Shown here: in pieces, positions 36,313 through 36,948 of the stretch
Numbering within the stretch: position 1 is the stretch's first letter
Layout: the number at the start of each line of letters is the position of its first letter
Virus record (IMG/VR): IMGVR_UViG_2778261504_000023
Location: 1 to 40,045 of that record
DNA from: a virus
Lineage: Duplodnaviria > Heunggongvirae > Uroviricota > Caudoviricetes
Strand: one strand, 5' to 3'
DNA: 40,045 nucleotides
Made by a program: the position numbers and the translations under genes
Notes under the pieces: model-generated
The model's input: only the letters and a program-made list of their open reading frames with translations
Database searches by the model: none
What the model was told of the DNA's origin: nothing

Positions 36313-36319
36313 TAAAAAA

Positions 36320-36339
36320 GAGAGGGAAATATCCCTCTC
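36320..36339 (-). terminator. Hairpin terminator (effective mainly for minus strand) between tail fibre and gtr remnant
   Basis: GAGAGGG-aaatat-CCCTCTC; run of A on plus strand upstream (U-run on minus). Confidence 0.55.
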
Positions 36340-36344
36340 TTACA

Positions 36345-36452
36345 TTAAATTACTTTATATGACTTCAATTCTTCGAATTCACGTACCGTTTTATAAAAAA
36401 TTGGTATCGCTTCTTCTTCATTGAAGACAGGAACTACAAGAGATATCTTCAT
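36345..36452 (-). pseudogene. gtrB: Truncated gtrB (bactoprenol glucosyltransferase) remnant, 35 codons
   Basis: [35 protein letters not shown] then stop; matches N-terminus of GtrB glycosyltransferases (recalled); ATG overlaps gtrA stop (ATGA). Confidence 0.6.
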
Positions 36453-36811
36453 TTCGCATCCCTAAAGACAATGAACTTTGAATAGACGAAACCGCACACC
36501 AGGCTTATGGCGGAGAAGGTGACGAGAGTAACAAATGGTGGCAGACCGCACATGTCAGCAGCCCAGCCAACAACTGCGCTCATAGTGCCCATGAATCCAA
36601 CGTAAAGCATGTATTTCAGCGTAGTAGTAGAGGCATTGAACGTAAATTTCGCGTTAGCGTAAAAACTGAACGATACAGCTATGACAAAACCAGCAAAGTT
36701 AGCAAGTACTTGATTTGTATGTATTACGTAAATACAGAAAGCAAACACAACCCAGTGTATGAGCGTGTTTAACACTCCGATTGACATGTATTTAGTGAAC
36801 AGATGAAGCAC
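36449..36811 (-). CDS. gtrA: GtrA-family flippase (bactoprenol-linked glucose translocase)
   Basis: 120 aa from GTG 36811; (M)[28 protein letters not shown]...[22 protein letters not shown]...[11 protein letters not shown] matches GtrA. Confidence 0.8.
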
Positions 36812-36839
36812 TTTTTCCAGAAAAAATAAAAACAAATAT

Positions 36840-36897
36840 ATCACCCTTTGGGTAATTTCGTTAAGAGCTATCTGAGTTTATTTAAACCATATATGGT
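36840..36897 (+). promoter_or_regulatory. Putative lysis-operon promoter module: variant palindrome ACACCCTTTGGGTAA plus CATATATGGTTT
   Basis: Half-site variant CACC at 36840..36854; TATATGG motif at 36888..36894. Confidence 0.4.
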
Positions 36898-36948
36898 TTA
36901 TTGTGTATGATAGACTCACCTACTAAGGGGGGTTCTTTATGCGCAAAT

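Follow-up and report, generated by a model that had tools for sequence, protein, structure and literature searches.

The region between the tailspike gene and the first lysis gene of the window (the whole stretch of viral DNA analysed here, 40,045 nucleotides) is probably an inactivated gtrABC cassette of a Uetakevirus prophage, which would have lost most of gtrB and gtrC through an internal deletion and whose neighboring tailspike would have exchanged its receptor-binding domain later. In the established gtr model, undecaprenyl-phosphate-glucose is synthesized by GtrB and flipped across the membrane by GtrA, after which GtrC moves the glucose onto the O-antigen (PMC2629481; PMC4413052). The window retains a complete gtrA, a 35-codon stub of gtrB (gtrB'), the tip of gtrC, and the terminator of the operon (Table 1). 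Because GtrB and GtrC are missing, the cassette should no longer be able to glucosylate the O-antigen: without GtrB no undecaprenyl-phosphate-glucose would be made, and without GtrC none of the glucose would be transferred. A sequence-only reading of the same DNA had already described a decayed gtrABC operon with a recombination junction, and this description is borne out by the comparisons presented below, albeit with a different account of how the junction came about.

Table 1. Features of the tailspike-to-lysis region, in window coordinates.
Feature	Position	Strand	Evidence
Tailspike gene, 875 aa	33685..36312	+	Pfam Tail_spike_N and Beta_helix; identity profile against four E. coli prophages
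Intrinsic terminator hairpin, 10-bp stem, 4-nt loop	36318..36341	-	Terminator scan, RNA fold, match to L049
gtrB' pseudogene ORF, 35 codons	36345..36452	-	BLASTP; GT2 span of intact GtrB; PGAP note
Last 7 nt of gtrI-like gtrC (…AAG TAA; stop 36350-36352)	36350..36356	-	Collinear with L049, N7 ORF21 and the FDN-24 ORF
ATAT crossover microhomology, 4 bp	36357..36360	.	Three-way comparison of window, K-12 yfdH and N7/L049
gtrA, 120 codons, intact, GTG start	36449..36811	-	Pfam PF04138; identity profile; dN/dS
gtrA-holin divergent intergenic region, 30% GC	36812..36939	.	Alignment with BUCT554, motif scan
Sigma-70-like promoter candidate for gtrA, TTAACG-18-TATATT, TG extension	36835..36864	-	Consensus scan, prediction
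Lysis cassette: holin-like protein, holin, GH19 endolysin, Rz	36940..38756	+	Pfam; annotation of related loci

The prophage and its seroconversion slot

Judged by homology, the window reads as almost exactly one phiV10/epsilon15-like (Uetakevirus) prophage. Its integrase gene begins at base 1, and the host genes yfgI and yfgH come after the end of the lysis cassette. Positions 1-25000 are 97-98% identical, over 81-90% of their length, to the phages phiv142-3, PAS61, ZX5, and TL-2011b, and phiV10 is 97.6% identical over the 54% of this stretch that it matches. The backbone is collinear with that of the group, and the holin-like/holin/GH19 endolysin/Rz cassette typical of Uetakevirus lies downstream of the tailspike gene, 92% identical to that of phiV10.

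In the Uetakevirus group, the interval between tailspike and holin is a slot for O-antigen-modifying cargo, usually transcribed towards the tailspike and bordered on the right by the lysis cassette. The slot of phiV10 holds oac, annotated as O-antigen acetylation for superinfection immunity, and that of TL-2011b holds an O-acetyltransferase. Enterobacter phage BUCT554, also a Uetakevirus, carries a complete gtrA-gtrB-gtrC between tailspike and holin in the same orientation as the gtr remnant of the window, which sits in this very interval and is flanked on both sides by genes of the plus strand. The sequence-only reading had suggested a comparison with related prophages that carry an intact gtrABC; such operons are found in the same place in BUCT554 and in many IMG/VR contigs.

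Anatomy of the gtr remnant

The gtrA gene is an uninterrupted 120-codon ORF, complete as the sequence-only reading had it, and its product matches the Pfam family GtrA_DPMS_TM (PF04138) over residues 7-116 of 120 (E 3.7e-13, 50.1 bits, cut-off 26.1) with ~84% amino acid identity to K-12 YfdG. It is the first gene of the gtr operon, and its stop codon overlaps the gtrB start in an ATGA, seen as TCAT at 36449-36452 of the plus strand and likewise noticed from the sequence beforehand; in most of 38 GTDB loci gtrB also starts at the last base of the gtrA match. A degenerative origin of the GTG start was considered and rejected: E. coli strains have this start in their PGAP annotation, and GTG is also the first codon of the intact BUCT554 gtrA.

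The ORF that follows had been called gtrB-like, and it does resemble the N-terminus of GtrB: it is identical to K-12 YfdH/GtrB at 33 of 34 positions (BLASTP E 1e-20), a match to gtrB that is far beyond chance. Its codons 1-32 come from gtrB, and codons 33-35 (K V I) and the stop come from the gtrC tail and the spacer. An intact GtrB has ~306 residues, with a GT2 domain (PF00535) at residues 4-167 and a C-terminal membrane anchor. The stub spans just the first ~32 of 168 GT2 domain positions and has no Pfam match, and PGAP calls it a pseudogene in all five loci inspected ('glycosyltransferase', 'incomplete; missing C-terminus'). With the tailspike stop at 36312 and the gtrB' stop at 36345, the gap between the two is only 32 nt long and nothing else fits into it, in agreement with the earlier remark that there is no room for gtrB or gtrC. 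That the 35-residue stub is itself a functional small protein is scarcely conceivable. The ATGA overlap couples its translation to gtrA and the terminator comes directly after it, but the product would consist of the first 32 residues of a 306-residue GT2 enzyme and three from unrelated sequence, and it has no independent conservation beyond its one clade.

Alignment to full-length gtrB, which had been proposed as the way to locate the breakpoint, puts the break at gtrB codon 32/33. The coding strand of the window reads GAATTGAAGTCATAT up to the junction and AAAGTAATTTAATGTAAGAGAGGGATATTTCCCTCTCTTTTTT beyond it, or, written in codons of the minus strand, …GAA TTG AAG TCA TAT AAA GTA ATT TAA TGTAAGAGAGGGATATTTCCCTCTCTTTTTTATTAA. 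The left side is gtrB up to TCATAT, and window positions 36352-36520 are identical to K-12 yfdG/yfdH at 168 of 169 sites. From ATAT onwards, the right side has the same sequence as the DNA that follows the tailspike genes of N7, a P22-like phage, and of the FDN-24 prophage. The minus strand there encodes N7 ORF21 (107 aa) and a 171-aa ORF of FDN-24, both annotated as hypothetical and both with the 3' end …GAT ATA AAG TAA. This ORF is 43% identical to SfI GtrI (E 3e-33), 98% identical to the C-terminal part of the full-length protein (506 aa) that occupies the place of gtrC in the IMG/VR locus L049, and homologous to the C-terminus of a 500-aa GtrC (L020; Enterobacter sichuanensis locus). Pfam has no family for the N7-type GtrC (506 aa) or for the 171-aa remnant, and the identity of the protein as GtrC follows from its position and from its homology to SfI GtrI and the L020 GtrC. 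The 'hypothetical proteins' downstream of the N7 and FDN-24 tailspikes are accordingly gtrC remnants. The window itself holds no more of gtrC than 7 nt that can be assigned unambiguously, or 7-11 nt (36350-36360) at most, equal to 2-3 codons; where a functional gtrABC has a serotype-specific gtrC downstream of gtrB, only this tip is left.

An intact counterpart of the right side is available in L049, a P22-like locus from IMG/VR in which a complete int-gtrA-gtrB-gtrC operon converges on the tailspike. L049 agrees with the window in the gtrC end, in the hairpin, and in the final ~100 nt of the tailspike gene, and in its coordinates the stretch missing from the window measures 2339 bp. A full-length copy of the N7-type gtrC was met only in this P22-like context. 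The ATAT at the junction is common to gtrB (TCATAT followed by GAAGT) and gtrC (CAGATAT followed by AAAGT) and lies inside a ~20-bp patch of imperfect similarity, AATTGAA..ATAT.AAGT; the parental sites over these ~20 bp are AATTGAAGTC-ATATGAAGT in gtrB and AATTGAAACAGATATAAAGT in gtrC. The same sequence would also be obtained if an incoming fragment ending in the gtrC tip were joined to a resident gtrB.

The hairpin abuts the tailspike stop codon on one side and comes within 3 nt of the gtrB' stop on the other. Folded as minus-strand RNA it reaches -18.4 kcal/mol (z -4.99), and on this strand the stem is followed by TTTTATTAAT, with the T-run at 36308-36317, as expected of an intrinsic terminator. 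On the plus strand no more than TTACATT comes after the stem, and the terminator scan flags the minus strand only. As the T-run lies on the gtr strand, the hairpin is mainly the terminator of the gtr operon and not primarily that of the tailspike gene. The sequence-only reading had the truncated ORF stopping directly at this terminator, which it took to be shared with the tail fibre gene.

Upstream region

The intergenic region between gtrA and the divergently transcribed holin-like gene is more conserved between the window and BUCT554 than are the genes that flank it, and it carries the motif GGTAATTTCGTTAAGAG and the palindrome AAACCATATATGGTTT. The -35 element of the candidate gtrA promoter falls inside a block conserved with BUCT554. 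From these predicted signals, gtrA is probably still transcribed, and its transcript would be a short one that ends normally at the hairpin. An Rfam scan of positions 36000-37200 returned only a sub-threshold L20-leader (22.6 bits against 58.7, E 0.09), which was treated as chance.

GATC sites had been reported as missing upstream of gtrA, and Dam/OxyR-type phase variation had been taken to be absent. None of these sites occurs within 2.4 kb: between 34771 and 37203 there are 0 against 6-9 expected, which makes this the longest GATC-free gap in the window. There are thus no paired GATC sites, and to the extent that GATC sites can tell, such phase variation is absent. No GATC is found in the aligned BUCT554 intergenic region either, and since the operon of that phage is intact, the lack of GATC characterizes the lineage and does not stem from decay.

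Origin of the junction and exchange of the receptor-binding domain

The arrangement of the remnant suggests an ancestor in which the tailspike gene faced a gtr operon running in the opposite direction, with gtrC nearest to the tailspike, followed by gtrB and then gtrA. A single ~2.3-kb deletion would have fused codon 32 of gtrB with the final two or three codons of gtrC. The crossover would have taken place in the 4-bp ATAT inside the patch of imperfect similarity, and may therefore be described as microhomology-mediated. Left over from this event would be the gtrA promoter region, gtrA, the translationally coupled 35-codon gtrB stub, the gtrC stop, and the operon terminator. The operon retains both of its ends and lacks its middle, a pattern that on the simplest reading marks an internal deletion, and a deletion inside a complete cassette, rather than import of the right side, is the likely origin of the junction. 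No Uetakevirus combining this gtrA (at least 95% identical) with an intact gtrB and an N7-type gtrC turned up in the scans of GTDB representatives and IMG/VR. The closest intact GtrAs are only 88% (IMG/VR L060, with a different gtrC) and 85% (GTDB representatives) identical in amino acid sequence, so the direct ancestor is reconstructed rather than observed.

The adjoining tailspike gene records a separate event. Compared with O26-type Uetakevirus prophages, its first 100 nt are only 87-88% identical, the N-terminal particle-binding part (~33785 to ~34690) is 98-100% identical, and the receptor-binding domain (~34691-36210) is only ~55% identical to that of four O26-type E. coli prophages. The receptor-binding domain of the window is of the N7/FDN-24 type (90% amino acid identity from residue 279), and that of the O26-type prophages is 84.5% identical to L049. 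The last ~100 nt of the gene (36211-36312) are conserved across binding-domain types; near-identity to the O26-type prophages resumes at ~36211 and continues through the gtr junction and gtrA. The right boundary of the swap is therefore at ~36211, about 145 bp from the gtr junction, and an identical junction stands beside two different receptor-binding domains. Because the same junction is found next to two unrelated binding domains, it would have arisen once, with the binding domain exchanged afterwards. Such an exchange could have proceeded by homologous recombination in the conserved N-terminal part of the tailspike gene and in its last ~100 nt.

These boundaries bear on the account given by the sequence-only reading, in which the tail fibre module overwrote most of the operon. 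The DNA that follows the junction is instead the gtrC tip and the gtr terminator, and the exchanged part of the tailspike ends before either of them. Spelled out as an import, this account is rather unlikely: a foreign tailspike module, bringing its terminator and a few nucleotides from further downstream, would have been joined to gtrB codon 32 by illegitimate recombination and would have overwritten gtrB and gtrC. Its appeal lies in the collinearity, at 92.5%, of the binding domain, terminator, and gtrC tip of the window with N7 and FDN-24, in both of which gtrC is already a remnant, and in true cargo replacement elsewhere, exemplified by the IMG/VR contigs L070 and L072 with a gtrA' of 20-38 codons beside an acyltransferase. 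Import nevertheless needs a donor ending exactly in the last gtrC codons and a microhomology joint between two molecules, where a deletion is one event. It also sits poorly with a visible binding-domain exchange that stops short of the gtr junction and with a junction that is the same beside both binding domains, and the gtrC tip and terminator are native neighbors of both binding-domain types in P22-like loci.

Fate of gtrA after the proposed deletion

The identity profile of gtrA is that of a mosaic. Over the 5' 300 nt, its identity to any other gtrA is only ~70%, and its last 60 nt, together with gtrB', are 98-100% identical to yfdG/yfdH of K-12 CPS-53. Comparison with intact gtrA genes gives dN/dS values of 0.08-0.13, with dS saturated, and pairs of intact genes fall in the same range. 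Most of the divergence of gtrA would therefore predate the deletion, which would be recent, purifying selection having acted on the gtrA lineage through most of its past.

Inside the truncated clade the picture consists of a few changes. Two substitutions, both nonsynonymous, distinguish the window allele from the O26 alleles, and with so few of them dN/dS is weak at this level; one of the changes, M74I of the O26 allele, affects a position at which 39 intact GtrAs do not vary. The allele of strain 7_15_5C has a K-12-like converted patch and a one-codon insertion, the latter present in none of the 39 intact GtrAs, and in strain 03_3469 gtrA is interrupted by IS600. Within this clade, gtrA seems to be without sign of constraint, which at such small numbers is only suggestive, and we infer that gtrA is a recent, unselected leftover.

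Alternatively, gtrA could be kept by selection as an orphan flippase that serves a gtrB/gtrC pair or a polyprenol-sugar pathway elsewhere in the host. In favor of this, the ORF is intact, as are its GTG start and the conserved region upstream, and GtrA and GtrB are reported to be interchangeable between gtr clusters (PMC3259042; PMC4413052). Such a role is very unlikely, however, in view of the IS600 disruption in one carrier strain, the insertion in 7_15_5C, and the purely nonsynonymous polymorphism of the clade. In addition, a query of gtrA plus gtrB' found one place per carrier genome among the matches listed, at megablast sensitivity, with the exception of 03_3469, where IS600 splits the match; and if the deletion is recent, chance alone would be expected to leave a gene of 363 bp intact.

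Distribution and other scars

The identical gtrA-gtrB' arrangement is present in ~32 of 5,426 complete E. coli genomes, most of the carriers identified being O26-type STEC, and the identical junction is also found in one IMG/VR contig. These genomes and the contig have a different receptor-binding domain than the window, whose own combination of this junction with an N7-type binding domain is absent from the 5,426 complete E. coli genomes. The scar as such appears to be of single origin.

Scars of other kinds are found in relatives. A scan of IMG/VR with the motif GGTAATTTCGTTAAGAG retrieved 34 Uetakevirus-like contigs. In ~18 of them gtrA is accompanied by a gtrB that is either full-length or matched as far as the sequence extends, and ~9 are without gtr. 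Four more carry other, independent scars: in one (L065) gtrA is followed by an IS3-family element with no gtrB, and the remaining three (L070, L072, and L084) have gtrA stubs of 20-38 codons, two of them beside acyltransferase-3 genes. The scar of FDN-24 is different again, a 26-codon gtrA stub being followed by the last 171 codons of gtrC. Among the 38 gtrA loci of GTDB representatives there is no internal truncation of gtrB, the partial gtrB matches only running to the end of the sequence; none of these loci is more than 85% identical and none lies in the holin context. Multiple scars in the slot and none in the 38 GTDB loci thus mark such damage as recurrent beside tailspikes and not as the rule for gtr operons.

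A more speculative proposal, and quite an unlikely one, is that the surviving pieces have a use in recombination. The ~150-bp block in which the conserved end of the tailspike gene, the terminator, and the end of gtrC lie side by side could, with the highly conserved gtrA 3'/gtrB 5' segment, provide portable homology arms by which P22-like and epsilon15-like E. coli podoviruses trade receptor-binding and seroconversion cassettes. On this view gtrA would be kept either as an arm or as an orphan for a host pathway, and not simply because the deletion is recent.

Significance

The present analysis adds a base-level description of the junction, identifies the sequence joined to gtrB as the tip of gtrC rather than DNA of the tail fibre, and sets the gtr deletion apart from the exchange of the binding domain. 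The prophage should not be scored as serotype-converting by glucosylation, a point that matters little beyond annotation hygiene, and in the typing of O26-type STEC a gtrA match alone is no evidence of O-antigen modification. One small set of relatives here offers a base-resolved view of how the tailspike-adjacent slot of temperate podoviruses turns over, with microhomology deletion, IS insertion, cargo replacement, and receptor-binding-domain exchange seen together.

Comparison with known systems

The remnant is readily placed among the phage gtrABC operons (SfI/SfII/SfV/SfX, P22/epsilon34, and K-12 CPS-53 yfdGHI). Its gtrA is of the same family and size and has the same ATGA overlap, its gtrB stub is 97% identical to K-12 YfdH, and its gtrC tip is homologous to gtrI-like gtrC; in P22-like phages the operon also converges on the tailspike. 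Unlike those operons, the window has only gtrA complete, with 32 of ~306 codons of gtrB and 2-3 codons of gtrC, and its operon lies between the tailspike and lysis genes of a Uetakevirus and not next to attP/int. The slots of phiV10 (oac), TL-2011b (O-acetyltransferase), and BUCT554 (gtrABC) occupy the same position, in a backbone that is 97-98% identical over 25 kb and with a conserved intergenic region on the holin side, whereas the cargo of the window would be non-functional.

Degraded gtr operons have been documented before. Prophage gtr clusters range from intact to highly degraded in a published survey (PMC2629481), Salmonella family 2 gtr operons are described as having a truncated gtrB (Davies et al. 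2013, as cited in PMC4413052), and in BTP1 gtrB is deleted and gtrA* truncated (Kintz et al. 2015, PMC4413052). Like the window, these Salmonella operons lie beside the tailspike, have lost gtrB function, and keep a gtrA relic. The surviving gtrC of BTP1, however, encodes an acetyltransferase that is active without GtrA or GtrB, and the window keeps no modifying enzyme. The locus, already flagged as a pseudogene in RefSeq/PGAP annotation, is a case of ordinary decay that involves no new mechanism, and it stands as another example of the documented degraded gtr operons next to tailspikes.

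Exchange of the tailspike receptor-binding domain

The tailspike receptor-binding domain (window 34691-36210) is a swapped module, bounded at ~34690 and ~36211. The domain shares ~55% nucleotide identity with O26-type prophages, the Escherichia coli relatives with an identical gtr junction, whereas both flanks are 98-100% identical to them, except over the initial ~100 nt of the tailspike gene. At 92.5% identity, the domain matches the tailspikes of phage N7, which is P22-like, and of two E. coli strains from chicken, FDN-24 and FDN-9. A Uetakevirus context with an N7-type binding domain was not found among 5,426 complete E. 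coli genomes.

The window's longest run without a GATC site is the interval 34768-37203 (2431 bp), which contains 0 sites versus the 6-9 expected from local composition. It takes in the receptor-binding domain, the gtr remnant and the beginning of the lysis cassette. The GC content of the cassette is 40-46%, compared with 50%. The absence of GATC over this interval may reflect a foreign, lower-GC origin of the cassette. The window's own phage also encodes an adenine methyltransferase homologue.

Decay states of the gtr slot

Remnants of gtr genes also lie behind P22-like tailspikes (table below), and FDN-24 additionally retains a gtrA stub of 26 codons. The gtr scar of N7 and FDN-24 has a breakpoint different from that in the window and is an independent event. 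In one carrier strain, E. coli 03_3469, an IS600 element interrupts gtrA close to its 3′ end (L005, 3801-4957), cutting the gtrB stub off from gtrA, and the GtrA C-terminus is altered.

Four Uetakevirus-like contigs from IMG/VR represent four more independent decay or replacement states of the same tailspike-holin slot. In L065, gtrB is missing and an IS3-family element follows gtrA. L070, L072 and L084 each retain a gtrA stub 20-38 codons long, and in two of these contigs the stubs adjoin acyltransferase-3 (O-acetylase-like) genes.

Coordinates of gtr remnants behind P22-like tailspikes and of the intergenic palindrome
Feature	Sequence	Positions	Context
gtrI-like gtrC 3′ remnant, annotated 'hypothetical protein'	L003 (phage N7)	4710-5033	downstream of P22-like tailspike
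gtr remnants, including a 'hypothetical protein' that is a gtrI-like gtrC 3′ remnant	L044 (E. coli FDN-24)	5710-6225 and 6356-6436	downstream of P22-like tailspike
16-bp perfect palindrome AAACCATATATGGTTT	window	36885-36900	inside gtrA-holin intergenic region

The lysis cassette and its upstream region

Compared with Enterobacter phage BUCT554, the gtrA-holin intergenic region (window 36835-36935) is conserved above the level of its flanking coding sequences. It carries an extended -10-like element, TGTGTATGAT, oriented toward the lysis genes. Since its motif GGTAATTTCGTTAAGAG is retained even in relatives without gtr genes, this motif is probably part of lysis-gene regulation, not of gtr.

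Within the endolysin gene, a patch at window 37667-38000 is 87-94% identical to O26-type prophages, versus 99-100% for the rest of the lysis cassette, and seems to be another small mosaic segment. At the right end, E. coli 97-3250 has an integrase and early genes directly after Rz (L001, 8872-10128), where the window has yfgI. The search query matched three places in the 97-3250 genome; together with this arrangement, these matches could indicate tandem or multiple related prophages.

Mosaicism of gtrA

The gtrA gene itself is mosaic. Together with the gtrB stub, its final ~60 nt (window 36352-36520) are 98-100% identical to yfdG/yfdH of K-12 CPS-53, whereas its first 300 nt (compared over 36521-36811) show only ~70% identity to any gtrA. 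Strain 7_15_5C carries a longer K-12-like tract, reaching about 36554, and a 3-nt insertion at 36596. The mosaic structure and the longer tract of 7_15_5C suggest that gene conversion with a gtr cluster of the CPS-53 type has occurred repeatedly.
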